Assembly: GCA_964244895.1 (NCBI GenBank)
Contig: CAXTKV010000105.1
Location: 1 to 17,824 of the forward strand
Direction of reading: 5' to 3'
DNA: 17,824 nt
Source: an uncultured Deinococcales bacterium
Lineage (GTDB): Bacteria > Deinococcota > Deinococci > Deinococcales > JAAFIG01
Part shown: piece by piece, positions 144-16,350 of the stretch
Numbering within the stretch: position 1 is the first letter of the stretch
How the letters are laid out: each line of letters opens with the position of its first letter
Notes under the pieces: generated by a model
Seen by the model: only the letters and a program-made list of their open reading frames with translations
Databases searched by the model: none
What the model was told of the DNA's origin: nothing
Position numbers and translations under genes: made by a program

Positions 144-183
144 ACCGTCCAGCACGCATTCCCCGATTTGCGTGCTGGACGGT
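144..183. repeat. Paired intergenic box, 25-bp spacing
   Basis: ACCGTCCAGCACGCA (144-158) and TGCGTGCTGGACGGT (169-183) form a perfect 15-bp inverted repeat. Confidence 0.95.
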
Positions 184-318
184 ATCTTTTGAATGCGCCG
201 AACGATATTCTCAACGATGCGATGCCGGAGCACCGCATCAAAAGGCGCGCTGCGCGGTCTCCTCGAGCCATCCGCCATTTGTCGGACGCAGCGCGCGAAA
301 CGCTGTATCGTCCGGGGC

Positions 319-867
319 GTGAAGCGGATCGCGATCATCGGTTCGGGTGGCGCGGGCAAGACCACGCTGGGCCGGACTTTAAGCGAGCGTCTCGGGATTC
401 CCGTCATCCATCTGGACGCGCATTTCTGGACGCCGGGCTGGGTGCCCACACCGCGCGAGGACTGGGTTCAAGCCGAACGCGAGTTGATGCAGCCGGAGGC
501 GTGGATCGTGGATGGGAACTTTTTTCGCACGATGGACGCGAGATTGGCGCTCGCGGACACGGTGATCTTTCTGGATTTGCCGCGCCTGACGTGCCTGGCT
601 CGGGTCTTGAAGCGCCGCGTGCGGTACCACGGGCGATCCAGGCCCGACATGGCGGCGGGCTGTCCAGAAAAAATTGATCTCGAGTTCCTGCGCTGGATCT
701 GGGATTACCCGCGCACCAAGCGCCCCGCGATGCTCGAGAAACTGGCCTCGGTGCGGGCGTCAGGCAGGCGTGCGGTTCACTTGCGATCGGCAAGCGAGGT
801 CGCGCGGTTTCTCGAGGCGGTCAACCGATCAGTTGGCCTTCGCGCTCACGGACGGCGTACAGCCTGA
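319..867 (+). CDS. Adenylate-kinase-like P-loop protein, DNA topology modulation protein (FlaR) family, 182 aa
   Basis: N-terminal P-loop KRIAIIGSGGAGKTT plus IHLD..FW, WIVDGNF and CPEKIDLEFLRWIWDYP motifs. GTG at 319 lies 7 nt after TATCGT (-10-like). The upstream ORF extension looks non-coding. Confidence 0.85.
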   Translation: MKRIAIIGSGGAGKTTLGRTLSERLGIPVIHLDAHFWTPGWVPTPREDWVQAERELMQPEAWIVDGNFFRTMDARLALADTVIFLDLPRLTCLARVLKRRVRYHGRSRPDMAAGCPEKIDLEFLRWIWDYPRTKRPAMLEKLASVRASGRRAVHLRSASEVARFLEAVNRSVGLRAHGRRTA

Positions 868-956
868 ACGCGCGGTTCGAAGCGGCCTTCGTGCATTTCG
901 ACGCGTGCCCGATCGGCCCGACCATGGAAGCGACCCTCAAAGACCATATTCGCGGC

Positions 957-1376
957 TCAGAATCGCAAATCCCACAGCACGCCGAGCGCCTGCGCCAGTT
1001 CCCAGTTTCGGACGATCACCACGTCGGTCTTGAAGGTGCTGTAGGCCATGATCGAAACGCCCGCCTGCGCCAACGCGCCCGTCAATTTGGCCATCACACC
1101 GACGGTTTCCAGCGGGAAATCTTGCGCCAATCGAATGGCTCGGTAGCCGTGCTGCGCGGTCGCCTCGGGGTGTTCGGACGCGACCTGCTGCCAGCGTTCG
1201 ATCTCGATGATCACGGTGATCTCGACGGGATCGTGAATCACGACGGTCAGGTCGCCACCTTCGGGCAAGCGCAAGCTCGAGCCGGACGGGATGCTGACCA
1301 GGGCGTACTCGCCCTCGAAGACTTGAAGGATGTCGGTGCCGCGCGTGAATTGGCTCGAGACTGGCTTGTGTTCCAC
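957..1376 (-). CDS. ACT-domain protein (ACT_7/CASTOR-like), 139 aa
   Basis: C-terminal VGVMAKLTGALAQAGVSIMAYSTFKTDVVIV is typical of this family. Confidence 0.8.
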   Translation of the reverse strand: MEHKPVSSQFTRGTDILQVFEGEYALVSIPSGSSLRLPEGGDLTVVIHDPVEITVIIEIERWQQVASEHPEATAQHGYRAIRLAQDFPLETVGVMAKLTGALAQAGVSIMAYSTFKTDVVIVRNWELAQALGVLWDLRF

Positions 1377-1447
1377 AAAGACCCCACTTGAAGATTAACG
1401 CATGCGTTACCGCGCTCGGGTTCAAGGTTCGGGCGCGAAAGAAAAAC

Positions 1448-1497
1448 ATCGTCCAGCACAGTGTTTTCCCGTCTCGAGAATTCGCGTCCGGGACGGT
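1448..1497. repeat. Paired intergenic box, 35-bp spacing
   Basis: ATCGTCCAGCACAGT (1448-1462) and CGCGTCCGGGACGGT (1483-1497). CTCGAG lies in the spacer and the pair abuts a stop codon. Confidence 0.8.
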
Positions 1498-1869
1498 CTA
1501 TCGGTGCGAGAGATTGAAGAACACGAAGCCCAATGCGGCGGCGGCGCTCCAGGCGTTCCCCAGCACCATGCCCCACGGTTGATTCGGTGGATCTCTCAGG
1601 ATGCGCCACATGAAGCCGCCCTCGATCAGGCCCCTGGTGTAGAAAATGCCCGCGCCGACGAACACGACCAGGTATTCCAGGACGTACCGCAGGTTTCCGG
1701 TCGCCAGGCCGACCAGGACGGTGATCAACCACAGCAAGCCGACGGCGTTCAGGGCCGCGAAAAAACCGGGCGGCAGTTGGGTTTTCTGAGCGAAGACGAT
1801 GAAAGCCCAGATGGCCAGCCCGGCCAGTGAGATCATCAATAACAGGGTCAGGATTCCGACGAGGTTCAT
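1498..1869 (-). CDS. Small integral membrane protein (about 4 TM), hypothetical, 123 aa
   Basis: Four hydrophobic stretches. TACAAT (1881-1876) lies 6 nt before the ATG. Confidence 0.75.
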   Translation of the reverse strand: MNLVGILTLLLMISLAGLAIWAFIVFAQKTQLPPGFFAALNAVGLLWLITVLVGLATGNLRYVLEYLVVFVGAGIFYTRGLIEGGFMWRILRDPPNQPWGMVLGNAWSAAAALGFVFFNLSHR

Positions 1870-1951
1870 GGGCGCATTGTATCGGCGTCGCGCGCGGTCT
1901 CGGAGGGACGGCTGCCTCGGGTCGCGTGGATGGAGCGTGATTCTGAGGAAG

Positions 1952-2001
1952 GTCGTCCAGGACTGGATTCTTGATTCGCAAAAAAGAGCTTCCAGGACGG
2001 T
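1952..2001. repeat. Paired intergenic box, 35-bp spacing
   Basis: GTCGTCCAGGACTGG (1952-1966) and AGCTTCCAGGACGGT (1987-2001), followed by GTTCTCGAG. Confidence 0.75.
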
Positions 2002-2122
2002 GTTCTCGAGGCGTTTTCTCGGGTTGACGAAAGGCCACCACGGTTCATTACTCGAGCCGAAGTGCGCCGTGTGATTGGAAGGTCATGGCGAGCCCTGAAT
2101 CACCGCCTCAGAGATCGAAAAC

Positions 2123-2137
2123 ACCGTGCTGTACGTA
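2123..2137. repeat. Single variant intergenic box upstream of the gyrB promoter
   Basis: gaaaac-ACCGTGCTGTACGTA-ttttc. Its first 13 nt are the exact reverse complement of the variant arm at 4548-4560. Confidence 0.7.
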
Positions 2138-2147
2138 TTTTCTTGCC

Positions 2148-2176
2148 TTGCATTCCTCGTGTGCAGGGTGTAGAAT
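2148..2176 (+). promoter_or_regulatory. Sigma-70-type promoter of gyrB
   Basis: TTGCAT (2148-2153), 17-bp spacer, TAGAAT (2171-2176). Confidence 0.7.
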
Positions 2177-2198
2177 CCATTGAAGTCGGGACGAGCAA

Positions 2199-2215
2199 TT
2201 ACGCTCGGGACAGAA
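2199..2215. promoter_or_regulatory. RDRM (radiation/desiccation response motif, DdrO operator)
   Basis: 17-bp TTACGCTCGGGACAGAA fits TTMYG-N7-CRKAA. It lies just downstream of the gyrB promoter, and gyrB is an established member of the Deinococcus RDR regulon. Confidence 0.75.
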
Positions 2216-2253
2216 TAACTTCCCCGCATTCGAGTCTCGAAGCTGCACCCTGA

Positions 2254-4314
<2,061 letters not shown>

Positions 4315-4331
4315 AATCGTCGATTCTTCAG

Positions 4332-4357
4332 AACCCCGCCGCACGGCGGGGTTTTTT
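4332..4357 (+). terminator. Intrinsic terminator of gyrB
   Basis: AACCCCGCC-GCAC-GGCGGGGTT hairpin running into a T6 tract. Confidence 0.9.
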
Positions 4358-4377
4358 CTTGCCCGAGATACAAAAGC

Positions 4378-4427
4378 ACCGTTCACCACGATATTCTCGA
4401 GAATTTAGAAACACCGTCTGGGACGAT
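4378..4427. repeat. Paired intergenic box, 35-bp spacing (degenerate)
   Basis: ACCGTTCACCACGAT (4378-4392) and ACCGTCTGGGACGAT (4413-4427), with TTCTCGAGAA in the spacer. Confidence 0.7.
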
Positions 4428-4520
4428 CTCCTGATGGGTATCGCCGTAGAGCAAACCCCGTGTTCACCCTCGAGATTCAGCTTGAATCACCGGGACTCGT
4501 CACGCTCGAAAACCAGGAAC

Positions 4521-4560
4521 ACCGTCCAGCACGCATTCCAGACAGCGCGTACAGCACGGT
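4521..4560. repeat. Paired intergenic box, 25-bp spacing
   Basis: ACCGTCCAGCACGCA (4521-4535) and CGCGTACAGCACGGT (4546-4560). Confidence 0.9.
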
Positions 4561-4596
4561 GTCCTTATGAATGATCGGCTATGTCATCTGGCGGAC

Positions 4597-4624
4597 TTGA
4601 CGCTTTCCTGACGCGCGCTAGACT
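4597..4624 (+). promoter_or_regulatory. Promoter of ssrA
   Basis: TTGACG (4597-4602), 16-bp spacer, TAGACT (4619-4624), 25 nt before the mature 5' end. Confidence 0.7.
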
Positions 4625-4649
4625 CTAAAAGCCACAGACGTGGCCCTGC

Positions 4650-5004
<355 letters not shown>

Positions 5005-5008
5005 CGAC

Positions 5009-5050
5009 AGAACGCCCCGAGATCAATGCTCGGGGCGTTCTCGTTGATTT
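5009..5050 (+). terminator. Hairpin/terminator downstream of ssrA
   Basis: 13-bp perfect stem AGAACGCCCCGAG / CTCGGGGCGTTCT followed by CGTTGATTT. Confidence 0.75.
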
Positions 5051-5150
5051 CAGGGCGTTTCTCGAGAATTCGGTCGAGCTGAGTCTCGAAATTGGAGAGT
5101 GCGCTGGCATCTCCTACCAAGGCAGGGGGACATAAACATAAATCGAGAAC

Positions 5151-5190
5151 ACCGTCCAGCAAGCGTTTTTAAATCTGCGTCCTGGACGGT
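5151..5190. repeat. Paired intergenic box, 25-bp spacing
   Basis: gagaac-ACCGTCCAGCAAGCG ... TGCGTCCTGGACGGT-attctc. The right flank abuts the bshC stop codon. Confidence 0.9.
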
Positions 5191-5196
5191 ATTCTC

Positions 5197-6771
5197 TTAA
5201 ATTTCCAGGATGTGCGAGCCGTGGTGATCGAGGGCCAGCAGACGTTCCAGCGTGTACGGGCCGTATTTCATCAGGAAGGACAGGAAGTTTTCGCTGCGCT
5301 CCTGGGGCGTGCCGTGCGGTTTGAGGTGCAGGTTCAGGCGCTCGAACTGGCGGTCGGCGGTGTCTTCCAGGCGCACCAGGCTGGCGGCGACCTTGCGTTC
5401 CAGGCGGGCGACGTGACCCAGCACGCTCGAACGCGAGCGTTCGAGCGCACCATCCAGGCTCGGATCGAGCGGGTCGAGGTTTCCGGCCAGGCGTTCAAAC
5501 GCCAGTTCCAGGTCGACCAATCCAGCCCTGAACGATTCCGCCGCGCCGGATCGTTGCAGCAGCGTGCGTTCCAGGCTGCCGCGCGGGTCGTTGACGAAGG
5601 CGGTGGAATCCAGATCGTAGCGCACCAGGATGCGGCGCGTGGGCGGCTCGAGCCAGGTGACGCTCATTCGGGGCCACAGGAGGGGTTGCGGCACGTTGTG
5701 CAGCGCGTACACGCCGGAAAGCTCGAGCTGGTAGGCCAGTTCGGACGGACCCAAGATGCTGACGGCGGAGGGAAAGACGGCATCCGCCAGCGTGGGGCGC
5801 AGACCGGCGGCGGGCGTCAGGCGGGACGGATCGGCGTCCAGGATCGCCTCGAGCTCAGCCGCAGAATAGGTGCGTTCGGCGTGAAAGCCGTGATCATCGA
5901 AGCGCAGCAGGCGGCGCTCGCCGTCTTGACCTTCCAGGAACAGGTTGGTGCTGCCATCGGGTCGGCGCAGTTGAGGCGCGAAGCCCAGCGCCTCGAGCCG
6001 GATGGCGGCCTGCTCGATGGCTCGCGTGCCCGCCAGAGGGTCGCGCAATTCCTGGCGGATGAACGGCGCGAACAAGGGCGCGAATTCTGGCGTTAATGGG
6101 TCAACCACGACCAGCCCATGAGATCCGAGCAAACCGGACACGATCCGCGCGAACCACTCGGCGTAGTTGCCGGATGCGCGCGCAGCGGATTCAACCATTT
6201 CCAGCACGGGTTTCTTGAACTCTTCGGGTGCGGCAAAATCTTGGAGTTCGTCCAGACATCGTTCCAGCCACGCGTCCTGAATGGTGATCCGACCGACCGG
6301 TCGGTTCTGGGGTAGCTCGAGCGCAATCGCGTGTTCGCGCTCCTCCAAGTCCAGCAACCGCGCGCTGGCGACCTCGGCGGCGTCGTGATCCTGACTGGCG
6401 ACCCAGAACACGGGAATCACCGGGCGGTCATCGCGGTCAGCCTGACGCGCCAACAGGATCGTGTTGACGGCCTTCGAGATCGTGTACGCGGGGCCAGTCA
6501 GCAAACCCGCCTGTTGACCCGTGATGATCACCCTGGAGGCCGGGTGCACCAGCCGTTTGGCGTTCTCGAGCGCTCTCTTCGGCGCGTCGATCCTTTTCAG
6601 GTACGCCACTGCCGCCGCCCCAAGCGACACCCGATCGGCTGGGTGCGCGCCTTCGATCGCCGCGTCCAGATCGCCCGCCGGGACGCGGTGAAAATCGCTC
6701 AAACGTCCATCTTTGTACGCCTCGAGCCACGACGGTGACGCGCTGGGTGTCTGGGCAGTCTCGAGCGGCAT
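5197..6771 (-). CDS. bshC: Bacillithiol biosynthesis cysteine-adding enzyme BshC, about 524 aa
   Basis: IITGQQAGLLTGPAYTISKA, PVFWVASQDHD..EV, GPSELAYQ, PRMS and PQER motifs. The ATG at 6771 was chosen because TAGAAT (6785-6780) lies just upstream. Confidence 0.92.
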   Translation of the reverse strand: MPLETAQTPSASPSWLEAYKDGRLSDFHRVPAGDLDAAIEGAHPADRVSLGAAAVAYLKRIDAPKRALENAKRLVHPASRVIITGQQAGLLTGPAYTISKAVNTILLARQADRDDRPVIPVFWVASQDHDAAEVASARLLDLEEREHAIALELPQNRPVGRITIQDAWLERCLDELQDFAAPEEFKKPVLEMVESAARASGNYAEWFARIVSGLLGSHGLVVVDPLTPEFAPLFAPFIRQELRDPLAGTRAIEQAAIRLEALGFAPQLRRPDGSTNLFLEGQDGERRLLRFDDHGFHAERTYSAAELEAILDADPSRLTPAAGLRPTLADAVFPSAVSILGPSELAYQLELSGVYALHNVPQPLLWPRMSVTWLEPPTRRILVRYDLDSTAFVNDPRGSLERTLLQRSGAAESFRAGLVDLELAFERLAGNLDPLDPSLDGALERSRSSVLGHVARLERKVAASLVRLEDTADRQFERLNLHLKPHGTPQERSENFLSFLMKYGPYTLERLLALDHHGSHILEI

Positions 6772-6835
6772 ATCGGCGCATTCTAGGGTCGCAAAGTGCA
6801 GGCCGGGTGTCTTGCACGCGACGGATGGAGGGTCG

Positions 6836-6955
6836 TGGGGAGTCAAAAGTCAGGGGTCACAAGCAAAAGCTGAAGTCGAGCCCGTGGGCGCTCGAGATTT
6901 GAGCGATGTTATTTTGGCGGGGTTCCCTCTGACTCCCGACCTCTGACCAACCCCA
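6836..6955. repeat. Inverted heptamer tandem repeats
   Basis: GGAGTCA-AAAGTCA-GGGGTCA (6839-6859) faces TGACTCC-CGACCTC-TGACCAA (6930-6950), closed by TGGGG/CCCCA. Confidence 0.6.
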
Positions 6956-6961
6956 ATAAAT

Positions 6962-6976
6962 ACCGTCCTGGACGAC
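6962..6976. repeat. Single intergenic box
   Basis: aaat-ACCGTCCTGGACGAC-actt. No clear partner box. Confidence 0.7.
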
Positions 6977-7016
6977 ACTTCTCGGCACCAAAAACCGAGT
7001 CGCGTCGCGGGCTGCG

Positions 7017-7025
7017 TGTTAGAAT
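7017..7025 (+). promoter_or_regulatory. Extended -10 promoter of the phosphatase-glycosyltransferase operon
   Basis: TGtTAGAAT about 40 nt upstream of the ATG at 7067. Confidence 0.55.
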
Positions 7026-7066
7026 TTGCGCGATTGCGGCTCAGCACCGCAGGGTGGAGCCAGAAG

Positions 7067-7867
7067 ATGCGATTGAAACTCGAACTGTTGCCGCGCGGCC
7101 CTTACCCAGACGTGGTTCTGGTGGTGGACGTACTGCGCGCCACCACGACCGCACCTTTACTGTTTGAACGCGGGCTCGAGACGCTGTTCGTCACGCCGTC
7201 CATGCGCTCCGCGCGGTCTTACGCCAGTCGACACGAGCTCTTGCTGATCGGCGAACGCGATGGGCTGCCGCCGGAGGGATTCAATTACGGCGCGTCACCC
7301 GCCGATCTTTCAACCGTGGATTTTCACGGCAAGAGCGCCGTGCTGACCACCCAGAACGGCCCGAGCGCCCTGAGGGTCGTCAAGGGCGCGAGGCACGTGT
7401 TGTTGGCCTCTTTTTACAACGCGCGGGCCGTCTGCGATGCCGCGCTGGAACTGGCCGTGCGCGATGGGTTGGAAGAAATCGCGATCGTCTGCGCGGGGCA
7501 GGCGGACGCGGAATCGCTCGATGACACGCTGACGGCGGGCTTCCTGGCGCGTCGGATCGAACGGGCCTACCAGACGCGTTTCGGTGAGAATTTAGAGCTT
7601 CTGGACGCGGCCAGGATGTCCATCGCGCTCCTGAAGGCTTTCCCCGACCCGCAAGAGGGGCTGTTGCAGTCCACGGCGGGCGGCATCCTGGCGCGGCTCG
7701 GGCTGCACGAGGACATCGCGTTTGCATCGCTGGTCTCGCAGACGGACATGGTTCCGGCGCTGCGGGAAGTCACGGCCTGGGAACCCGAACCGCTGTACCG
7801 CTTCGAGGCGTTGCCACTCGAGCCCCAGAATTGGGAGCCCCAGAACCTGGAGGCCGGAACGCCGTGA
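7067..7867 (+). CDS. comB: 2-phosphosulfolactate phosphatase (ComB) family protein, 266 aa
   Basis: VVDVLRATTT, GERDG...GFNYGASP, TTQNG, LASFYNA and CAG...SLDD motifs. GGAG SD lies 7 nt before the ATG. Confidence 0.85.
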   Translation: MRLKLELLPRGPYPDVVLVVDVLRATTTAPLLFERGLETLFVTPSMRSARSYASRHELLLIGERDGLPPEGFNYGASPADLSTVDFHGKSAVLTTQNGPSALRVVKGARHVLLASFYNARAVCDAALELAVRDGLEEIAIVCAGQADAESLDDTLTAGFLARRIERAYQTRFGENLELLDAARMSIALLKAFPDPQEGLLQSTAGGILARLGLHEDIAFASLVSQTDMVPALREVTAWEPEPLYRFEALPLEPQNWEPQNLEAGTP

Positions 7868-8623: not shown

Positions 8624-8663
8624 ACCGTCCAGCACGCATACTTAAAAACGCGTCCTGGACGGT
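8624..8663. repeat. Paired intergenic box, 25-bp spacing
   Basis: ctcgagaac-ACCGTCCAGCACGCA ... CGCGTCCTGGACGGT-gttct. Confidence 0.95.
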
Positions 8664-8835: not shown

Positions 8836-10665
8836 ATGCGCGAGCAGTTGACAAAAACAGTTCTGCAACGTCTGACATGGGCGATTCTGCTGATCTCGAG
8901 CCTGAGTTCCGTCGGCTTCGCGCAAGACCCGAAGGTCGGGCTGATCGTGGCGGGCGGCGTGGCGCGGGGTTTTTCTTATCTGGGCGTGATGCAGGAACTG
9001 GTCAGGAACGGCGTGCCGATCGACGCGCTGGTCGGTACGTCGGCGGGTGCGCTGGTCGGGGGCTTGTACGCGAGCGGCTATTCGCTGGAGACCACCGAAC
9101 GCATCCTGAGTGAAATGAGCCAGCATCAGAGCGAGCTGATTCGCGTGTCCTTCCCACCGTTGAAGGGCCTGCTGGACCTGGGCGGTTTCGAGGTCACGTA
9201 CCGCGCGCTGGTCGGTGGCGTCAGGCTCGAGGACACGAGCCCGCGTTTCGCGGTGATGGCCACCAGGTTGCAACCCGGCCCCGGCGTGGCGCTCGAGCGG
9301 GGGGATCTGGCGGCGGCGGTGCGCGCCTCGATCAGTTTGCCGTTCGTGTTTCCGGCGGCGCTGTTCGAGGGCAATTACTACGTCGATGGCGGTCTTCGCA
9401 ACCCGCTGCCGGTCGATGTGGCCAGAAAAATGGGCGCAGACGTGGTGCTTTCCGTGCGTTCGGCCTCGGAATTGCCCACCCAGGCGCAGTCGTTGTCCGA
9501 CAGCCTGACGCTGACGCTGTACGCCCTGACGGCGCGCGCGGATCAGGAAAAACCGGACGCGTCCGTGCGCGTGCCGCTCGAGGACGCGCTGTTTTTTGAT
9601 TTCGGCGCGGCTCCCAGGTTGATAGAGCGCGGTCGGCAGGCGGCCAGGGTGGAAATGCCGAAACTGCTGGAAGAATTGCGCGCACGCGGCGTGCGACTGA
9701 CGGACGGCACCGATCCGAACGCGTCGAATCCCGTCAACGCCGAATGGCAATCCCGGCTCGAGCGCGGCCTGAACGAATCGCGCGCCCTGCCGGGACCGTT
9801 CACGCTCGCACCCCAGATCGAGGTCGGCCCCTCGAGTTACGCCTTCGGAACGCGCCCGAACGCGCCGGATGCGTTCATTGGCCTGGGGTTGGGCGCTTAT
9901 GTCGGCGGCGGGCCGCTCGGCGGGTTTTCGGTGGCGGGCGGGTACGTGGAACTGTTCGATCAACCCGGCGGTAGCGGCTACCTGAGCGCCGATTACGATT
10001 TCCGGGGCGGCTGGCGCGCCTACGGCACCTTCGACCCATCGCGCAGACCTTCCGGCGCATCCTGGGCGCTGGGCGTGGCGCAACAGGGACTGGGCTACGG
10101 CGCGCACCTGGAGGCGGACGCGCTGGCGCTCGGGCTGGGCGGGAACCTGCGCCTGAACGGGGACGGCACGCGAACAACGCTGAATCTCGAGGCGCGCTTC
10201 GGTTACGCGCCGTCCTTGCGGCTCGAGGGCAGCGCGGCGCTCGAGTGGAGCCTGCCGATGGACGGCCAGACTGGATCGTGGGTGCTGCGCGCTCGGGCGC
10301 TCGGCGGATTGACCACGGGCGGTGCGCAGGGCTTCAGCCTGGGCGCTTCCAGTTTGCTGCGGGCCTACCCGAACGGTTTTGCGGTCGCGCCGCAGGTCGC
10401 CATCGGCAACCTGGAATTCGCGTACCGTTTCGACGTTCCCAACTTGGTCGGGTTGGCCAGCGCCACGCCCGAATTCCGGGCTTTTCTGGACGCGGGGCTG
10501 GGCCTGGACATCAATGCTGGGCGCTCGAGCTTGCTGTGGGATGTCGGGCTGGGCGTGAGCTTGCCGGGGCGCTGGTTCGGCTTCGTGCCGTTCGCGTTCG
10601 GTCTGGACGTGGCGGTGGGCGGTGCGGGCTGGCGCATCAACCTGTTCACGGGCGTACCGTTCTGA
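8836..10665 (+). CDS. Secreted patatin-like phospholipase fused to a C-terminal Omp85-like beta-barrel (PlpD/type Vd-like), 609 aa
   Basis: Signal peptide (..VGFA/QD), then AGGVARG, GTSAG and DGG patatin motifs. The C-terminal half has amphipathic strands with LRAY, FLDAG and a terminal Phe. Confidence 0.85.
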   Translation: MREQLTKTVLQRLTWAILLISSLSSVGFAQDPKVGLIVAGGVARGFSYLGVMQELVRNGVPIDALVGTSAGALVGGLYASGYSLETTERILSEMSQHQSELIRVSFPPLKGLLDLGGFEVTYRALVGGVRLEDTSPRFAVMATRLQPGPGVALERGDLAAAVRASISLPFVFPAALFEGNYYVDGGLRNPLPVDVARKMGADVVLSVRSASELPTQAQSLSDSLTLTLYALTARADQEKPDASVRVPLEDALFFDFGAAPRLIERGRQAARVEMPKLLEELRARGVRLTDGTDPNASNPVNAEWQSRLERGLNESRALPGPFTLAPQIEVGPSSYAFGTRPNAPDAFIGLGLGAYVGGGPLGGFSVAGGYVELFDQPGGSGYLSADYDFRGGWRAYGTFDPSRRPSGASWALGVAQQGLGYGAHLEADALALGLGGNLRLNGDGTRTTLNLEARFGYAPSLRLEGSAALEWSLPMDGQTGSWVLRARALGGLTTGGAQGFSLGASSLLRAYPNGFAVAPQVAIGNLEFAYRFDVPNLVGLASATPEFRAFLDAGLGLDINAGRSSLLWDVGLGVSLPGRWFGFVPFAFGLDVAVGGAGWRINLFTGVPF

Positions 10666-10692
10666 ACGCCAGTTCAGGCTTAGGCCACAAAG

Positions 10693-10742
10693 ACCGTCCC
10701 AGACGGTGTTTTGCCTGATTCAACGGCACCGTCCAGCACGCA
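10693..10742. repeat. Paired intergenic box, 35-bp spacing
   Basis: ACCGTCCCAGACGGT (10693-10707, a perfect 6-3-6 dyad) and ACCGTCCAGCACGCA (10728-10742). Confidence 0.85.
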
Positions 10743-10772
10743 CCACTGGTCACCTTGCCGTAGACTGAAGGC

Positions 10773-11318
10773 GTGCCAGAGATCGCTGAACTCTTCCCGA
10801 AAAGCTTTCTGGAACGCCAGGGCGCGACCCTGGAAGGCGTGCAGTCGCGCATCGAACGGGCCAGCGCGTTGCTGGACACCAGGCTCGAGGCCGTGCCAGA
10901 AAGCGCATTTTACGCCCCGACCGCTCCCGACAAATGGAGCCCCGCCGAAATCGCGGATCACGTCATCAGGGTCAACCGCCTGATCGCGCAAGCCCTCCGG
11001 ATCGGATTGCGGCGCACCACCGACCCTGGCCTGGTGATTCTGCGAATGCCGCGCGGACACGTCACCCCGGAAGGCAACACCATCGCGCCAACCGGGACGG
11101 AACCCGCACCGGGACGCGACAGGCGCGCCCTGAACACCGAACTCGAGGCGGGATTCGCGGACATTTCGCTGCTCGCGCACGATCTGGACACCGCCGACGC
11201 GCTGAACATCACCTGCGTCGATCAGTCCTTCTTCGGAGAGATGAACGCGCGCGAATGCCTGCAATTGATCGCCTGGCACACCGCGCACCACGCCCGGCAA
11301 CTGCCCGAGGCTGAATGA
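10773..11318 (+). CDS. DinB/YfiT family protein, 181 aa
   Basis: KWSPAEIADHV and WHTAHHARQL supply the His triad; FFGEM motif. TAGACT lies 6 nt before the GTG. Confidence 0.88.
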   Translation: MPEIAELFPKSFLERQGATLEGVQSRIERASALLDTRLEAVPESAFYAPTAPDKWSPAEIADHVIRVNRLIAQALRIGLRRTTDPGLVILRMPRGHVTPEGNTIAPTGTEPAPGRDRRALNTELEAGFADISLLAHDLDTADALNITCVDQSFFGEMNARECLQLIAWHTAHHARQLPEAE

Positions 11319-11439
11319 GCGCTTGTGACCAGGCTTTCACTGGACGGGCACACGAACCGGATAACATGACCGCAATTGCAGGCTCAGATCCTTGCCAGAA
11401 GATTCAAACGGGTGAATTCCGACGCACCGTACTCAAGAC

Positions 11440-11487
11440 CGCTCGAGCCAGCAGTGCAGCAGACGCTCGAGCCAGCAATGCAGCAGA
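11440..11487. repeat. 24-bp tandem duplication
   Basis: CGCTCGAGCCAGCAGTGCAGCAGA / CGCTCGAGCCAGCAATGCAGCAGA, one mismatch. Confidence 0.9.
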
Positions 11488-11502
11488 ACGGAGGGGGTTC
11501 CG

Positions 11503-12705
11503 TTGACCACCATTCCAGCGCCAAACATTCAACCCGAGACGCACCCTGAAACACCCCAGGAGTCATCTCGTGCATCCGCGCGCGGGTTGTGGCTGATCTC
11601 GCCTTTTTACGATCTCTCGTTCATCATTTTCTCGAGCGCACTGCTGTTCCTGCCCCACCTGGGCGCTTACCTGGCCAGCCAATCCGGTGCGGGATCATCG
11701 GACAGCAGCAACTGGTTGAACGCCAACGTGATCGTGGATTTGTTCGTGACGGCCTTCATCGGTGGGCCGCATTTGTTTGCGACCTACACCATGACCTTCA
11801 TGGAACCCCGTTTCCGCGAGCGCTACAAGCGTTACACCTGGGGCGCGCTGTTGATGCCCGTGATCGTGCTGTCGCTCGCGATTTTCAACCTGACGCTCTT
11901 GGTCACGATCTTTTTCTTCTGGGCCAGCGTTCACGTCATCCACCAGGCCGCGTACATCGCGGATTCGTACAGGTTTAAAGATCCGCGTTTCAACCAGACG
12001 GCTTTCGTCTTCTGGAAACGGGCCTCCAGGGTCATCGATTACGGCTTGCTGATGACCAGCCTCTACCCGATTGCGACCTTCAAATTCACCGACACGCCCT
12101 TGATCATCGGCGGGCAGAACTTCTCGAGCGACGGCTTCCAGACGGGCGGACGAGCTTTGTTGTTCCCGGAATTCTTAAAAACCGAATGGCTGGCGTACCT
12201 GGCGACCGCCGGGTTCGTGTTCTTCCTGGCGCTCTTTATTTTCAAGACCATTTGGGAGGCGCGGGTCGGGTTGTTCCACGGCCCCAAAACCCTGCACATG
12301 AGCCTGGCCGCCGCGCTGTTCTTCATCACGCCCGTGCTGCCCAACCTGGACGTGGCTTTTCAGGGCTTGAACGTCTGGCATTCGTTTCAGTACCTGGCGG
12401 TCGTGCTGTACCTGAACCGCGTGCGCTCCGAACGCGGTCTGATCGGGTCGGCGTTCGTGGCGAACGTCTCGAGGTCGGGACGGAGCCTGTACTGGCTGTG
12501 CTTTCTGTTCACGTTGGGCGCGGCGGTGGCGTACTTGCTGGTGCGCGGGGCGCTGTTGGTGTTCAACGTCTGGCCCGGCGATCTGATGCAGCAGCACTAC
12601 TTTTCCTTTTATACGGTCGTGCTTTCCGCGCTGTTGATTCACTATTACTTCGATCACTTCCTGTTCTTGCAGGTCGATGACGTGATCACGCCCAAGTGGA
12701 CTTGA
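11503..12705 (+). CDS. Polytopic membrane protein with four His motifs, function unknown, 400 aa
   Basis: About 9-10 hydrophobic segments with GPHLFATY, WASVHVIHQ, WHSFQY and IHYYFDH. GGAGGGGG lies before the TTG start. Confidence 0.85.
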   Translation: MTTIPAPNIQPETHPETPQESSRASARGLWLISPFYDLSFIIFSSALLFLPHLGAYLASQSGAGSSDSSNWLNANVIVDLFVTAFIGGPHLFATYTMTFMEPRFRERYKRYTWGALLMPVIVLSLAIFNLTLLVTIFFFWASVHVIHQAAYIADSYRFKDPRFNQTAFVFWKRASRVIDYGLLMTSLYPIATFKFTDTPLIIGGQNFSSDGFQTGGRALLFPEFLKTEWLAYLATAGFVFFLALFIFKTIWEARVGLFHGPKTLHMSLAAALFFITPVLPNLDVAFQGLNVWHSFQYLAVVLYLNRVRSERGLIGSAFVANVSRSGRSLYWLCFLFTLGAAVAYLLVRGALLVFNVWPGDLMQQHYFSFYTVVLSALLIHYYFDHFLFLQVDDVITPKWT

Positions 12706-12723
12706 AGCTCGGACAGTAAGGAC

Positions 12724-12764
12724 ACCATCACGGACGCATTCTCGAGAACGTCGTCTAGTACGGT
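12724..12764. repeat. Paired intergenic box, 26-bp spacing (degenerate)
   Basis: ACCATCACGGACGCA-ttctcgagaac-GTCGTCTAGTACGGT-gttctcgag. Confidence 0.7.
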
Positions 12765-12946
12765 GTTCTCGAGTTTATTTGGGCATGAAATTTGATGCTC
12801 GAGCGCCTCGTTCAGGGCATCCCATCTCGAGCGGCGAACGATGCGCGCACCTGCTCGAACCATTGAATGTTCACCAATCCTTGAGCCAGGTGACAACTCA
12901 CATCTCCAGTGGGTAATCTTGGGCTCACGGCAAAGCACTCAATCAC

Positions 12947-13885
12947 ATGAAACCTTCGATCACCGCACGTTCAATTCTGCTGGGCGCGAGCCTGATCGCC
13001 AGCGTCGGCTTCGCGGCGTGGTCTTACGTCAACCTGTCCAATCAGCGCGACGCGTTGCAATCGCGCAGCTTGCGGCTCGAGACGAAACTGGCCGCCAGCA
13101 GCGCGCGCGTCACCGCACTCGAGGCGGAGCAAGTCCAAACCCAGGGCAAACTGGCGCAGGCCACGGGTCAGATCAAACAGTTCAACGCGCAAGCCAAAGC
13201 CATCCAGGGCAAGGTCGCGGAACTTCAGGCGCAGGTCGCTCGGGTCAACGCGAATGGGGCGGGCGTGCAGCGCACCTCGGGCCGGATTGTGAGCGCATCC
13301 AGCGACCCGATCAGTTCATTGAGCAACCTCTTCGCCCAACTTTCCAGCACCGATCGGCGCGTCAAGGACGTGATCGGAAGCCTGGAAAAAGCTGCCGATC
13401 AGGAAGCTCGCATCCCGAGCGGTCGCCCCGTGGATGGGCCGATCACCAGCACCTTCGGCTTTCGTTTCGGCCCGAAAACCGGCAAGCTCGAGCGGCACAC
13501 CGGCTGGGACATCGCCGCGCCCGAGGGCACGCCCGCGCAGGTCACGGCTTCCGGCACGGTCATCGAGGCGGGCTGGTCGGACGTGGGTTACGGCCTGCAC
13601 GTGGTGGTGGATCACGGCAACGGATTGAAAACGCTCTACGGGCATCTTTCCCAGATCGATGTTGCCGTTGGTGACGAGCTCGTGCTGGGCAGCGCGGTCG
13701 GGCTGGTCGGTTCGACCGGGAATTCTACGGGGCCGCACCTGCACTACGAGGTTCGGCTGGAAGACGTGGCGGTCGATCCCGGCCCGTTCCTGGATCGCAC
13801 CCGACCCGCGATTCCGCTCCTGCCGACGCCGAACGCCGCGCCTCTGGGGACTGGCCTGCCACCCTCGAGACCGCTCAGTCCCTGA
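12947..13885 (+). CDS. M23 family metallopeptidase with N-terminal anchor and coiled coil, 312 aa
   Basis: HTGWD (HxxxD), TLYGHL and GSTGNSTGPHLHYEV motifs. Hydrophobic N-terminus followed by a heptad-rich stalk. Confidence 0.92.
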   Translation: MKPSITARSILLGASLIASVGFAAWSYVNLSNQRDALQSRSLRLETKLAASSARVTALEAEQVQTQGKLAQATGQIKQFNAQAKAIQGKVAELQAQVARVNANGAGVQRTSGRIVSASSDPISSLSNLFAQLSSTDRRVKDVIGSLEKAADQEARIPSGRPVDGPITSTFGFRFGPKTGKLERHTGWDIAAPEGTPAQVTASGTVIEAGWSDVGYGLHVVVDHGNGLKTLYGHLSQIDVAVGDELVLGSAVGLVGSTGNSTGPHLHYEVRLEDVAVDPGPFLDRTRPAIPLLPTPNAAPLGTGLPPSRPLSP

Positions 13886-13903
13886 AGACTCAGTCCCTGA
13901 AGA
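13874..13903. repeat. Perfect 15-bp tandem duplication spanning the M23 stop codon
   Basis: CTCAGTCCCTGAAGA twice. Confidence 0.9.
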
Positions 13904-13910
13904 AAGGAAG

Positions 13911-13950
13911 ACCGTCCAGCACGCATGTCTCAAGACGCGTGCTGGACGGT
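13911..13950. repeat. Paired intergenic box, 25-bp spacing
   Basis: ACCGTCCAGCACGC-N12-GCGTGCTGGACGGT between convergent genes. Confidence 0.95.
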
Positions 13951-13990
13951 GTTTTCGCGTTTCATCTCGAGCATTCGGGCGGAGCCGACC

Positions 13991-14389
13991 TCACTTCTTG
14001 GTCAATGTGAAGGTTCCCGGCGTGCTGCCCGTGCCCCCGCCCGTCCACGAACCGCTCAGGGTCGTGGCCGTGAGGTTGGCCGTCATGTTGATCGCCGTGC
14101 CGGAACCCGTCGGGGTCAGCACGATGCTCGCGGAGGCGTTGGTGCGCGTACCGCTGATGGTCGCGAGCGGCGTACCGCAGGACGCGAACGTGGTGTCCGT
14201 GCACTGGTAGGCCGACCCGCCCAGCGCGCCGCTCGCATCGGTGATGGTCAGACGCGTGTTGAAAGCGTTCGAGGCTCCGGTCGTGAACGTACCCTCCCAG
14301 GTTCCGTTGGCGCTGGTTCCGGCGGGTGTGGATGAGCAGGCGGCGAAGATCGTGGTGAGCGCGAGCACCAGCATTATTTTTCGGAGCAT
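13991..14389 (-). CDS. Small Thr/Gly/Ser-rich lipoprotein, 132 aa
   Basis: MLRKIMLVLALTTIFAA-C lipobox with AAGGGG SD. Beta-strand-like segments GTWEG, LSGSW and GTFTLTK. Confidence 0.85.
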   Translation of the reverse strand: MLRKIMLVLALTTIFAACSSTPAGTSANGTWEGTFTTGASNAFNTRLTITDASGALGGSAYQCTDTTFASCGTPLATISGTRTNASASIVLTPTGSGTAINMTANLTATTLSGSWTGGGTGSTPGTFTLTKK

Positions 14390-14575
14390 CTTGACCCCTT
14401 CGGTTGCTATCGAGAACCTGAACGATCGGCTTTGAGCCGGCGTCCAGTGTAAACGCAACCCGAATTTCACCGACCAAGAGATGGGTGAACCGAAACCCGG
14501 ATCGGGGCGTACCTGTGTCGGCCTCGAGACCGGAGCAGCGCACCGGTGCGCGTTAGGCTCGAGCCAGGAGGCATC

Positions 14576-15598
14576 ATGCACGTATTTGACACGGTGATCA
14601 TCGGTGGCGGCCCGGCGGGACTGGCCGCCGCCTTGCACCTCGCGTTTCACGGGCGGGACGCGCTGGTGCTGGATCGGCGCACGGGGCCGTTGTGGTTCAC
14701 GCTGACGCCGCTGTGGAACGTGCCGGGCTTCGTCGGGCAATCCGGCGTGGCCATCCAGAAAGCCATGCAGCAAGAAGCCATCCGGGCGGGCGCGAAAGTG
14801 CAGTCCGGCAGCGTCACGCGGATTTCCGGTTCTGTGGGCGAGTTCGTGCTGGAAACTGAAAAAGGCGAGACGCACCACGCCAAAACCGTGCTGCTGGCCA
14901 CCGGGGTGGCGCGGCATCACCCGCTGGTGAACGGCGAATATGAACCGTGGTTGAAGTACGCCGCCAAGGGCAACACGTACTACTGCCCGGACTGCGAAGC
15001 GCCCGAACTGACCGGCAAGGATCTGGTCGTGATCGGCGTGGGCGGCGCGAACAGCGCGGTCGCGGAAGCGATCCCGCTGGTGGAGTTCGCGGCCCGCACG
15101 CGTTTGCTGCTGACGGGCGGCGCGGAGTTCAAACCCGAATGGGAAAAAAAACGCCGCGCGTTGGGGCTCGAGGTGATTCGCGGTTCGATCCAAAGCGTGG
15201 ACGGCTCGAAAGGCATCGTGCGGGCCGTGATCCTGGAAGACGGCACGCGCGTCGAAGCGGAGGCCTGGTACGTCTCCAGCCCGAAAGAGCCGCGCAACGA
15301 CCTGGCCAGACAACTGGGGCTCGAGATCGGGCCGAAAGGCCACATCCTGACCCTGCCGCGCGGTCAGGCGCGGCTGGCCGGGCGAGCTGACGATGCGTGG
15401 CTGGAGGGCGTCTGGGCGGCGGGCGACGTGCAACCGCAGACGCAGCAGGTCAGCATCGCGGCGGGCGCGGGCAACCGGGCCGCCGTGATGATCGATCAGT
15501 TCCTTCAGAAGCGCGAACCGCGCAGCCTGGGCCTGGTTCCCGGCGCACGGTTCGAGCCGCCGATCAAACGCGAGGCCAAAACACCGTCCAGCACGTGA
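14576..15598 (+). CDS. Thioredoxin-reductase-like NAD(P)/FAD-dependent oxidoreductase, 340 aa
   Basis: IIGGGPAG, LLATG, CPDC redox motif, GVWAAGDV and QQVSIAAGAG. AGGAGG lies before the ATG at 14576. Confidence 0.9.
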   Translation: MHVFDTVIIGGGPAGLAAALHLAFHGRDALVLDRRTGPLWFTLTPLWNVPGFVGQSGVAIQKAMQQEAIRAGAKVQSGSVTRISGSVGEFVLETEKGETHHAKTVLLATGVARHHPLVNGEYEPWLKYAAKGNTYYCPDCEAPELTGKDLVVIGVGGANSAVAEAIPLVEFAARTRLLLTGGAEFKPEWEKKRRALGLEVIRGSIQSVDGSKGIVRAVILEDGTRVEAEAWYVSSPKEPRNDLARQLGLEIGPKGHILTLPRGQARLAGRADDAWLEGVWAAGDVQPQTQQVSIAAGAGNRAAVMIDQFLQKREPRSLGLVPGARFEPPIKREAKTPSST

Positions 15599-15632
15599 AT
15601 CCTCGCGCCTCAGGAAGACCGTTCTGGACGGT
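15583..15632. repeat. Paired intergenic box, 35-bp spacing
   Basis: ACCGTCCAGCACGTG (15583-15597, overlapping the last codons and stop of the upstream gene) and gaag-ACCGTTCTGGACGGT-cttc (15618-15632). Confidence 0.9.
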
Positions 15633-15660
15633 CTTCTTTGCGCACCCGTAGAATCCGCGC

Positions 15661-16305
15661 ATGACCAGATTCATCTACCGCAAACCGCCAGGTGGTCTCC
15701 CCTACGCCCTGCACGTGCCCGAAGGTGCGCCGCCCGAAGGCGGCTGGCCGTTGATCGTATTCCTGCACGGTTCCGGCGAGCGCGGCAGCGACGGTCGGAA
15801 ACAAACCACCGTCGGCATCGGCGCGGCGATCCTGGAAAAGCCCGGACGCTGGCCTGCGGTGGTGCTGATGCCGCAATGCCCGGATGGTCTGGCCTGGAAG
15901 GGCACGATGCTCGAGATCGTGTACGGACTGATGGTGCAGACCGAGCGCGAGTTCGAGACGAATCCCGAACGCACCGTTCTGACCGGCCTGTCCCTGGGCG
16001 GTCAGGGCGCGTGGAACATGGCCTGCGCTTACCCGGATCGTTTCGCCGCCATCGCGCCGATCTGCGGCGCTGCCGACCCGTTCGAGGTCTCCAGGCTGCG
16101 CGGCGCGCGCATCTGGAACGTTCACGGCGATGCCGATTCCGTCGTGCCCGTCGAGTGCTCTCGGGTGCTGGAAATCATGCTCAGGAAAACCGGTCACCGA
16201 TCAATCAAGTTCACGGAATATCCGGGCGTGGATCACAACTGCTGGGATCTGGCGTACCGCGACCCGAAGTTCGTGCGTTGGGTTTTCTCGAGCCACAAGA
16301 AGTAG
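15661..16305 (+). CDS. Alpha/beta-fold serine hydrolase (phospholipase/carboxylesterase or peptidase S9-like), 214 aa
   Basis: FLHGSGERG, GLSLGG nucleophile elbow, HGDADSVVP and DHNCW. TAGAAT lies 6 nt before the ATG. Confidence 0.88.
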   Translation: MTRFIYRKPPGGLPYALHVPEGAPPEGGWPLIVFLHGSGERGSDGRKQTTVGIGAAILEKPGRWPAVVLMPQCPDGLAWKGTMLEIVYGLMVQTEREFETNPERTVLTGLSLGGQGAWNMACAYPDRFAAIAPICGAADPFEVSRLRGARIWNVHGDADSVVPVECSRVLEIMLRKTGHRSIKFTEYPGVDHNCWDLAYRDPKFVRWVFSSHKK

Positions 16306-16310
16306 AGAAG

Positions 16311-16350
16311 ACCGTCCAGCACGCGAGTATGAAAACGCGTGCTGGACGGT
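16311..16350. repeat. Paired intergenic box, 25-bp spacing
   Basis: ACCGTCCAGCACGC-N12-GCGTGCTGGACGGT. With its flanks it fills the whole 51-nt gap between convergent stop codons. Confidence 0.95.

Follow-up and report, generated by a model that had tools for sequence, protein, structure and literature searches.

A densely paired palindromic box in a Deinococcales genome as a candidate site of a DNA-bending protein

Short palindromes lie between the genes of a 17,824-nucleotide stretch of DNA from an uncultured Deinococcales bacterium (the window), most of them in pairs. This raises the question of whether the box is read as DNA by a protein or acts as an RNA hairpin or a mobile repeat. The core of the original prediction, a candidate double-stranded DNA site that a dimeric protein reads and whose pairs are helically phased, survived all the tests run, which covered quantised spacing, arm complementarity and G-U pairing; no RAYT was found in the 91% complete assembly.

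Box pairs in the window and the source genome

All 26 boxes proposed for the window were found where they had been placed, with zero to four mismatches to ACCGTC-N3-GACGGT, and the start-to-start spacings of their pairs were reproduced (Table 1). A refined position weight matrix (PWM) recovered 25 of the 26 at 10 bits or more and added four weak matches within genes of the window (1708, 6196, 16510 and 16747). The remaining box, at 12724, fell below threshold; in related contigs the consensus lies at 12727.

Table 1. Boxes and neighboring features of the window
Feature	Coordinates	Strand	Remarks
Box pair, 25 bp (144/169)	144..183	.	22.8/20.7 bits; strong halves outside
Box pair, 35 bp (1448/1483)	1448..1497	.	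24.5/18.2 bits
Box pair, 35 bp (1952/1987)	1952..2001	.	12.7/21.7 bits
Single ancestral box	2123..2137	.	Exactly 10 bp 5' of gyrB -35; family-conserved
Predicted gyrB promoter	2148..2176	+	From sequence and alignment with 7 relatives; -35 TTGCAT (2148-2153), 17 bp, -10 TAGAAT (2171-2176)
RDRM (DdrO operator) of gyrB	2199..2215	.	Motif apart from box; YGT-N5-ACR core geometry common to both
gyrB	2311..4314	+	Pfam PF00204/PF00986
Canonical intrinsic terminator 3' of gyrB	4330..4362	+	Fold -19.5 kcal/mol, z -4.4, U tail
Box pair, 35 bp (4378/4413)	4378..4427	.	RNA fold no better than shuffles, z +0.65
Box pair, 25 bp (4521/4546)	4521..4560	.	Upstream of tmRNA
tmRNA	4650..5004	+	Own terminator 5009-5041; box pair on either side
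Box pair, 25 bp (5151/5176)	5151..5190	.	
Single box	6962..6976	.	21.0 bits
Box pair, 25 bp (8624/8649)	8624..8663	.	
Box pair, 35 bp (10693/10728)	10693..10742	.	RNA fold no better than shuffles, z -0.94
Box pair, 26 bp (12724/12750)	12724..12764	.	First box weak
Box pair, 25 bp (13911/13936)	13911..13950	.	
Box pair, 35 bp (15583/15618)	15583..15632	.	First box overlaps last codons of an oxidoreductase gene
Box pair, 25 bp (16311/16336)	16311..16350	.	

Across the source genome, whose assembly is 91% complete, a seed PWM gave 5,621 matches at 10 bits or more, compared with 108-311 for five column-shuffled PWMs. The refined PWM gave 5,664 boxes, and 3,852 of them have a neighbor within 50 bp. 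Adjacent boxes showed the sharp genome-wide peaks that had been predicted, at 25.1 and 35.2 bp, which for a helix of 10.5 bp per turn are phases of 0.39 and 0.36 turn; a further peak suggested at 45 bp is absent (two pairs at 45 bp, one at 46). The counts are 803 pairs at 25 bp, 138 at 26, 39 at 34, 570 at 35 and 209 at 36, with minor classes at 30/31 bp (40/18) and 41/42 bp (27/18). Only five adjacent boxes genome-wide lie less than 23 bp apart, a near-total exclusion, and 48 triples occur, one of them 25+25. Beside 657 strong single boxes we found hidden weak partners at 25 bp (99) and 35 bp (56) and about none at 15-23 bp. As expected from the window, the spacers themselves differ (691 of 803 distinct at 25 bp, 568 of 570 at 35 bp).

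The description of the box as a 15-bp quasi-palindrome held for its dyad but not for its size, as informative sequence extends to about +/-16, or 33 bp. The consensus is symmetric, AA-N3-YGT-N5-ACR-N3-TT, with near-invariant CGT/ACG half-sites one turn apart and A/T flanks; in 25-bp pairs the inner half-sites are weak. Major-groove readout by a helix-turn-helix would also fit the strict CGT core, whose variants are of the transition type.

Using our own gene caller (4,530 genes), 3,663 of the 3,852 paired boxes (95%) are intergenic, and boxes are about 50 times as dense outside genes as inside. Pairs had been described as lying between convergent, tandem and divergent genes; their placement is actually biased to gene 3' ends, with boxes in 104 of 136 convergent gaps of 60-100 bp and in 2 of 24 divergent ones. 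No orientation bias was seen. Within coding sequence, boxes of at least 18 bits numbered 99, against 11-20 in synonymous shuffles, and pairs there fall in protein linkers. The box-poor contigs of the source genome carry RepA, conjugation or prophage-like genes. Several tRNAs have a perfect single palindromic box 8-10 nt downstream. The family also has an excess of CTCGAG (HIP1-like), phased with the box at 13.5 bp.

The motif at origins, gyrB and mobile loci

Across Deinococcota the box is an ancient motif of sparse occurrence, and its roughly 50-fold paired expansion is confined to the source lineage. Among 26 anchored chromosomal origins, the oriC gap between the first DnaA boxes, beside the unwinding element, measures 34 bp in 21 and 35 bp in three, and the best motif match is at offset 11 in 16 and at offsets 10-12 in 23, in all five sampled families. 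These sites are often degenerate (8 of 26 score at least 7 bits), and in 3 of 26 the best match lies elsewhere. A PWM built from origin sites of 37 relatives gives the same 25/35 peaks in the source genome; the relatives are not independent, and since their sites were located with the source-genome PWM, the correlation between the two matrices (r=0.91) is partly circular. According to the available text of PMC10325909, IHF occupies the R1-R5M gap of E. coli oriC and HU the box1-box2 gap of the T. maritima origin.

Plasmid origins gave a similar picture. Of 25 RepA origins, 20 have their best match between the AT-rich tract and the first iteron at empirical p<=0.1 and 15 at p<=0.05, leaving 5 of 25 with no match in the gap at p<=0.1. 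In D. radiodurans MP1, an out-of-sample case, the top match of 5,927 positions (177,420-177,434) falls in this gap, just outside the published cisMP element; near repA of pTT27 no match of at least 10 bits was found. The source genome's own box-poor plasmid contig retains a box in its RepA-origin gap. Chromosomal and plasmid origins share a site in the IHF slot, a position that the original prediction had not noticed. The D. radiodurans origin literature that we searched makes no mention of IHF; a conserved site nonetheless occupies this slot.

At gyrB, a box stands exactly 10 bp 5' of the -35 in 14 of 14 resolved family loci. It is absent from two Deinococcus-type gyrB promoters, and genome-wide we found no enrichment of -35 elements 10 bp from boxes. 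The exact 14-mer of the box is at background level in Deinococcus-type genomes. The motif also occurs at mobile loci, which we give as case examples rather than as a phylum-wide count: a DDE-transposase IS with two boxes near its end, separated by 52 bp, boxes among the arm-type repeats adjoining a tyrosine integrase (two such loci are one element), and a box within a terminal-inverted-repeat element (MITE) in three genomes of another family. IHF sites are placed in Correia elements and BIMEs in the part of PMC3184786 available.

An ancient site that is found throughout the phylum where origins elsewhere have IHF narrows the candidate readers to an architectural DNA bender. HU/IHF-family proteins are present in 121 of 121 and 19 of 19 genomes; mIHF was not found. 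All HUs examined carry the arm tip GV[KR]PG(T), and IHF and other HUs carry GRNP. Two HUs of the source genome rank 10 and 32 in codon adaptation among its 4,530 genes. Its HUs resemble those of relatives, so nothing in them explains the expansion.

Candidate readers and competing explanations

We consider it probable that the box is the site of the phylum's DNA-bending protein, a putative HU-family dimer, and that the pairs, which make up most of the roughly 5,600 copies, would hold two dimers at fixed helical phase past gene ends. By analogy of position with IHF, HU and Hbb, the protein would bind and bend the box, its arms kinking two pyrimidine-purine steps 9 bp apart while its body clamps the A/T flanks. 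Two dimers would bind a pair cooperatively, which would explain the weak inner half-sites of 25-bp pairs and the limit of two to a unit. Such two-bend units, about one per 2.7 kb and richest between convergent genes, could pin loop or plectoneme tips and buffer supercoils made by transcription. Copies would have accumulated in place wherever sequence is free, rather than by transposition, with template-switch inversion as a possible seed.

Could the pairs instead be selfish repeats of the REP/REPIN or MITE kind, which a transposase absent from the assembly has spread and which act as RNA hairpins that end or protect transcripts? We judge this improbable, and it is already largely refuted. The bias to 3' ends and convergent gaps would suit such repeats, good folds are seen for many 25-bp pairs (z -7 to -8), 9 of 36 perfect single palindromes have a U tail on the sense strand against 0 on the antisense strand, several tRNAs have such a box 8-10 nt downstream, and the assembly is 91% complete. 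However, the arms show no G-U bias (G-U versus A-C mismatches on the sense strand, 305/318 and 217/234), the RNA folding of 35-bp pairs is no better than that of arm-swapped controls, and canonical terminators lie 5' of the pair in 38 of 42 cases, as does the gyrB terminator with the 4378/4413 pair. The original view that the box is not a plain REP hairpin stands. Complementarity between the arms does not exceed independent expectation in the 35-bp class; in the 25-bp class a modest excess is seen (centre position 0.54 vs 0.40; MFE -25.2 vs -23.5). The box is no terminator in pairs, where U tails number 17 vs 11 of 346 and 21 vs 14 of 266, but a minority of single palindromic boxes are terminator-like. 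Neither is there an excess of 2-9 bp target-site duplications; flanks are similar in only 152 of 1,831 pairs, due to other repeat families; and the 2,304 distinct 15-mers with nearly all distinct spacers argue against clonal copies. No Y1 transposase was found (0 matches to PF01797 in the 91% complete genome, which also holds GTAG REPs). GTAG and CGTC REP families have an unpaired tag, then a 6-13 bp stem with a short loop, and a CCA tail for CGTC (PMC3733652); the box lacks this layout, its CGTC lying within the internal dyad. Conserved single sites in origins would also be left unexplained. True GTAG REPs coexist separately in the source genome (132 loose matches).

A protein of another kind, a dimeric helix-turn-helix or winged-helix global regulator binding pairwise like phage CI, is an unlikely but more serious candidate; it would act at origins and gyrB, and the expansion would be a roadblock or a nucleoid lattice. 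The half-sites one turn apart with A/T flanks, a core geometry equal to that of the XRE-family DdrO operator and the fixed position upstream of a -35 all fit it. So does published work on HU: in the portions available, T. thermophilus HU is said to bind dsDNA without specificity (PMC5613972), and D. radiodurans HU is reported without sequence preference and as binding pre-bent pUC19 loops that it was judged unlikely to introduce (bioRxiv 10.64898/2026.08.18.745388). Against a regulator, the loci at which the box occurs (the gaps in origins, att sites, ends of IS and the inside of MITEs) are those that IHF uses, the information spans 33 bp, and inspection by eye of 89 small, basic, codon-adapted proteins gave the HUs and no obvious phylum-wide helix-turn-helix candidate. 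We see very little chance that the site is real at origins but that its thousands of copies arose neutrally and without function, from a biased drive of repair, conversion or DNA uptake (HIP1-/DUS-like), with pairs from template switching. Copies do fill any free sequence, protein linkers included, recently acquired contigs are box-poor, the CTCGAG excess is box-phased, and the small arm-arm excess would fit. A single-site drive nevertheless fails to explain two sharp spacings one turn apart or the gap below 23 bp, and weak hidden partners at the same distances and the higher density outside genes also speak against it. Expanded RDRM operators of the DdrO repressor have next to no likelihood. 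The source genome has DdrO with an adjacent IrrE-like peptidase, and the YGT-N5-ACR core is common to both motifs; yet TT..AA ends are present in only 2 of the 5,664 boxes, the genome has an ordinary RDRM set besides (42 pattern matches), gyrB carries both motifs in different places (tabulated RDRM sites, PMC8533742, served for comparison), and with the query used DdrO was not found in genomes with an oriC box (0 of 11 in family f5; G166). We rejected the box as a DdrO operator on its ends and on its presence where DdrO was not found.

For the bending-protein explanation, a bolder form is possible but doubtful: Deinococcota HU, or an unrecognised partner, may recognise a symmetric site by its sequence and bend it as IHF does, and a single lineage may have built ~1,900 phased two-dimer units, one per 2-3 kb at gene ends, into a chromatin-like repeat. 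If true, the repeat would be programmed by sequence, with a positioned "two-bend particle" comparable to a nucleosome-positioning code. Two questions become testable: which factor takes the part of IHF in Deinococcus and Thermus, and whether a bacterium can encode nucleoid folding in thousands of phased sites. The source genome amounts to a natural selection experiment in which more than 5,000 sites define the protein's preference, footprint and cooperative geometry, and other dense families of intergenic palindromes that have been classed as REPs may likewise be protein sites that were amplified.

Comparison with known systems

The box shares with matS, parS, SlmA and Noc sites, DUS/USS and HIP1 the character of a chromosome-wide repeated DNA signal, as compared by description rather than alignment. 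Sites of MatP, ParB, SlmA and Noc number in the tens and are not paired at fixed distances. DUS/USS and HIP1 occur in coding DNA about as often as its share of the genome predicts; paired boxes, in contrast, are 95% intergenic, and the excess of boxes in coding sequence is only 3-6 fold over shuffles. The boxes resemble REPs, REPINs and BIMEs in being intergenic palindromes that number hundreds to thousands, frequently form dimers and lie close to gene 3' ends, but they lack the tag-plus-stem, clonal spacers and G-U bias, and each is an internal dyad whose profile resembles a binding site. The RDRM of DdrO, a 17-bp palindrome with TT..AA ends that marks DNA-repair promoters and co-occurs with DdrO, shares the core geometry and the gyrB location; it differs in having TT/AA flush with the core (AA/TT lie 3 bp further out in the box), in numbering a few dozen copies and in overlapping the -10 or start.

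Borrelia Hbb offers a precedent: as described in the available text of PMC2811001, this HU/IHF homolog has a specific site in the dnaA-dnaN origin interval and upstream of a -35, whereas the source genome provides sites and a candidate reader. The sequences differ, and that text reports no genome-wide paired expansion. Closest in position are the E. coli IHF sites, which lie in the same slot in oriC and iteron origins and at integrase, IS and MITE loci, with ~33-35 bp of informative sequence and A/T flanks. The E. coli IHF consensus is asymmetric. The box does not match it, being symmetric, and no IHF alpha/beta pair is evident. Where IHF sites are single and lie between REPs, the source genome carries thousands of stand-alone phased pairs.

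Phased pairs of boxes in the genome

All 26 copies of the 15-bp quasi-palindrome (ideal ACCGTC-N3-GACGGT, hereafter the box) first noted from the sequence of the window alone were found in place and with the spacings claimed for them. A position weight matrix (PWM) built from these copies gave 5,621 matches of at least 10 bits in the assembly that holds the window (G000; 5.12 Mb in 328 contigs, longest 66 kb, 91% complete), as opposed to 108-311 for five column-shuffled PWMs. The window is contig C105 of this assembly; homologs of RepA known from named plasmids of Deinococcus and Thermus, together with an HU resembling 5eka, assign it to Deinococcota. Iteration of the PWM yielded the motif AAcACCGTcCWGgACGGTgTT, whose information runs out about 16 bp to either side of the centre, and 5,664 boxes, of which 3,852 are paired. 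Sharp peaks at 25 and 35 bp had been predicted for the distances between boxes and were observed, with weighted means of 25.13 bp (n=973) and 35.23 bp (n=835) from start to start. Minor classes were found at 30.22 bp (n=65) and 41.29 bp (n=62). At 10.5 bp per turn both main classes have the same helical phase (0.39 and 0.36). Only five pairs in G000 are less than 23 bp apart. Triples are rare, and of the 48 present one is spaced 25+25. Weak partners of 657 strong intergenic single boxes were detected at 25 bp (99), 26 bp (30), 35 bp (56) and 36 bp (17), and almost none at 15-23 bp. Most 25-bp pairs have their strong halves outward (strong-weak|weak-strong in 498 of 803), and the layout of half-site strength is mixed in the minor spacing classes.

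By our own gene caller (4,530 genes in G000), 3,663 of the 3,852 paired boxes fall between genes, 46 straddle a gene boundary and 143 are inside coding sequence. Unit density is maximal 1-25 bp past stop codons. Gaps of 100-200 bp hold a unit in 160 of 187 cases where the genes are convergent, in 534 of 751 where they are tandem and in 63 of 142 where they are divergent. Within confident genes there are 99 boxes of at least 18 bits, against 11-20 in four synonymous shuffles; many of the coding pairs, as judged by eye, lie in low-complexity linkers. Such linker pairs translate to short recurrent peptides (examples in the table). Among the box-poor contigs, a scan of 47 selected proteins showed plasmid RepA on C15, conjugation genes on C190, an XRE/peptidase pair on C173 and accessory catabolic genes on C5.

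Coordinates of individual features (C-numbers are contigs of G000)
Feature	Sequence	Position	Remark
Single box	window	2123..2137	upstream of gyrB
gyrB	window	2311..4314 (+)	
RDRM match	window	2199-2215	
GTAG-type REP	window	4444-4470 region	
Membrane protein, 400 aa	window	11503-12705	His-rich motifs, no Pfam match at E<=0.001
GTAG-type REP	C85	3580-3640	
DdrO gene	C77	2266-2655	adjoining M78 peptidase
Coding-linker pair	C106	4446	
Coding-linker pair	C101	14210	
Coding-linker pair	C220	4328	
Two box-like sites	viral contig L201 (201,951 bp)	1450-1560	upstream of a consensus promoter; large phage
Top box match	D. radiodurans megaplasmid MP1	177,420-177,434	in the tract-to-iteron gap

DNA site, RNA hairpin or mobile repeat

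The pairs behave as DNA, and neither as RNA nor as a mobile repeat. Arm-arm covariation, predicted to be weak in a DNA site, equals the independent expectation in the 35-bp class; for the 25-bp class the prediction was borne out only in part, with complementarity modestly above expectation at four positions. In units at most 40 bp from a stop codon, G-U and A-C mismatches are equally frequent on the sense strand (305 vs 318, n=287; 217 vs 234, n=195). Folding energies of 300 real pairs compared with arm-swapped pairs were -25.2 vs -23.5 in the 25-bp class and -23.3 vs -24.0 in the 35-bp class. Of 42 tandem gaps with both a canonical terminator and a pair, 38 have the terminator ahead of the pair. 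In G000 canonical terminators are not depleted in box-bearing tandem gaps, the units have no orientation bias relative to transcription, and U tails are not enriched 3' of pairs. As for a mobile repeat, we found no target-site duplication around boxes in G000, flank similarity was seen in just 152 of 1,831 intergenic pairs, by way of other repeats, and the RAYT/Y1 transposase gene that the original note proposed looking for did not turn up (none in the 91% complete assembly; Y1 is present in one of three other genomes checked, an uninformative count). The equal mismatch counts, the failure of the 35-bp class to fold better than arm-swapped pairs, and the lack of duplications uphold the earlier preference for a DNA site over an RNA hairpin or REP.

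U tails are enriched behind perfect single palindromes (9 of 36) and several tRNA genes of G000 terminate in one of these boxes, which makes it likely that a minority of boxes double as terminators. The boxes at tRNA ends suggest a dual role as DNA site and terminator. Many tRNA terminators across the phylum use the box as hairpin (G000 and loci L042, L045, L050, L051, L055, L070, L073 and L075 from other genomes).

The layout described for the GTAG and CGTC REP families in the main text of PMC3733652 is unlike that of the boxes, and this main text makes no mention of Deinococcus or Thermus. Separate GTAG-type REPs occur in G000 (132 loose regex matches), as do 7-mer tandem repeats in intergenic DNA. 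Rfam matched only the tmRNA in the window.

An old single site and its expansion in one lineage

The site itself is old in the phylum. Upstream of gyrB, the distance from the box to the -35 element that follows it is exactly 10 bp in all 14 family loci resolved by regex (20 fetched; window included) and 9 bp in one genome of family f5; two further loci gave no resolved distance, and two Deinococcus-type genomes lack the box. A role as general activator found no support, as -35 hexamers are not overrepresented at 10 bp from the boxes of G000.

In oriC, the dnaA-dnaN interval, trinucleotide repeats are followed by two DnaA boxes, a gap and more DnaA boxes. Anchoring succeeded for 26 of 31 origin loci. 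Of these, 21 have a gap of 34 bp and 3 a gap of 35 bp; 16 have their best motif match at offset 11, and 23 have it at offsets 10-12. These matches are often degenerate, with at least 7 bits in 8 of 26, and several Deinococcus-type origins read YGC-N5-GCR (YGT-N5-ACR in the box). Regular DnaA-box arrays follow the 34-bp gap, a layout strikingly fixed across the Deinococcota oriC loci L113-L141 and L287. The corresponding gap is bound by IHF in E. coli and by HU in T. maritima (PMC10325909).

Upstream of repA on the box-poor plasmid contig of G000, an AT-rich tract is followed by the box and nine iterons. In 25 of 29 RepA loci (three without iterons, including that of plasmid pTT27, and one too short were left out), the highest-scoring site between tract and iterons had an empirical p<=0.1 in 20 and <=0.05 in 15, although kinship among loci inflates any such test; it reached at least 8 bits in 12. 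When MP1 was scanned as a fresh prediction, the top match of 5,927 positions fell in this gap, outside the cisMP element as given in the relevant passages of PMC7671480.

The expansion is specific to one lineage. G000 has 624 copies of the commonest 14-mer. Of 363 other genomes of the phylum, 362 have no more than 4 copies each and one (G032) has 16; the latter copies are unpaired and have near-identical flanks, and were therefore taken as one repeated element unrelated to the box family and rejected as a second expansion. The pair pattern had 1,427 matches in G000 (control 3); 18 relatives from the family had 0-23 each (controls 2-14). Samples of 120-400 kb from five relatives contain strong intergenic sites at 0-0.07 per kb, vs 2.9 in a sample of G000, and their single sites were only slightly above shuffled PWMs. 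The strict pair pattern had no match in collections of genome contigs or metagenome contigs, and the single-box pattern matched one viral contig. Sequencing-run contigs over box loci were about 92% alike (run X1) or 85-90% alike (run X3), with further box copies that have other spacers at the joints of the related contigs. These contigs reveal related populations, with 3,009 differences in all. Loci L004-L006 (genus g4 of f1, the family of G000) carry three boxes about 33-35 bp apart upstream of gyrB, possibly an ancestral form of the 35-bp class.

CTCGAG occurs 21,883 times in G000 (4.27 per kb), a genome depleted in most other palindromes of 6 bp, and shows phasing at 13.5 bp relative to the centres of boxes. 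Its excess is common to f1 (2.6-7.8 per kb; L001-L020, L202-L281) vs 0.11 per kb in a Deinococcus-type genome.

We propose that each box would be bent by one dimer and that a second dimer would bind cooperatively 2.4 or 3.4 turns off; at 25 bp the overlapping flanks would weaken the inner halves, and the unit would be complete at two dimers. About 1,900 units, richest at convergent transcripts, would hold bends and the tips of loops in place and take up supercoils, consistent with the position of the ancestral site at the gyrB promoter. The copies likely arose in place, and a local template-switch inversion would account for their inverted arrangement as well as for the slight excess of arm complementarity. 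For the expansion, the chief alternative is neutral drive, which leaves the phasing of the pairs unexplained.

Candidate reader and comparison with known systems

The box is probably a site in the IHF role, and HU may well be the protein that reads it. HU/IHF family proteins were found in 121 of 121 and 19 of 19 genomes. G000 has three HUs (codon-adaptation ranks 10, 32 and 866 of 4,530 genes); the arm tip is GV[KR]PG(T) in every HU of the phylum printed and GRNP in IHF, and comparison with phages gave nothing relevant. In the box, two pyrimidine-purine steps lie 9 bp apart, the distance that also separates the kinks made by HU and IHF. The Borrelia homolog Hbb is able to bind one site in the dnaA-dnaN origin (PMC2811001). 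Against HU, the D. radiodurans protein stabilised pre-existing pUC19 loops, with no sequence preference reported in the pertinent passages (bioRxiv 10.64898/2026.08.18.745388), T. thermophilus HU was termed non-specific on dsDNA (PMC5613972), and the HUs of G000 itself are unremarkable.

DdrO was excluded as the reader because the set of RDRMs, the operator of this repressor (PMC8533742), is intact and separate, RDRM ends falling in 2 of the 5,664 boxes. G000 has 42 RDRM pattern matches, several of them upstream of ruvB, uvrA/B/C/D, recG, gyrA and gyrB (genes recognised by eye). In one query DdrO was found in none of 11 f5 genomes nor in G166, all of which have the box in their origins. The same query found DdrO in families f3 and f4, and G000 itself has an intact-looking RDRM regulon in an uncultured family. 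The CRP-family protein DdrI was rejected, its site being TGTGA-N6-TCACA (PMC11253593), and mIHF was not found.

In case examples, boxes also occur at mobile elements. One DDE-transposase IS has two boxes 52 bp apart near the element end; two copies of one tyrosine integrase element have boxes among the adjoining arm-type repeats, and a third integrase locus has only a tRNA-terminator box. A repeat bounded by TAGCAG...CTGCTA with an internal box is present in 26-86 copies in three f5 genomes (G256, G257, G258). This element is MITE-like and 130-200 bp long (L071, L076, L085-L112), and the family parallels the Correia elements of Neisseria. BIMEs and Correia elements hold IHF sites (PMC3184786). 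Taken together, the places that the box occupies are those at which IHF acts.

The open-access papers searched hold no description of the motif, of a symmetric origin site found throughout Deinococcota or of an expansion into thousands of phased pairs, and two D. radiodurans origin papers do not mention IHF. A site of the IHF/Hbb type is of a kind already known.
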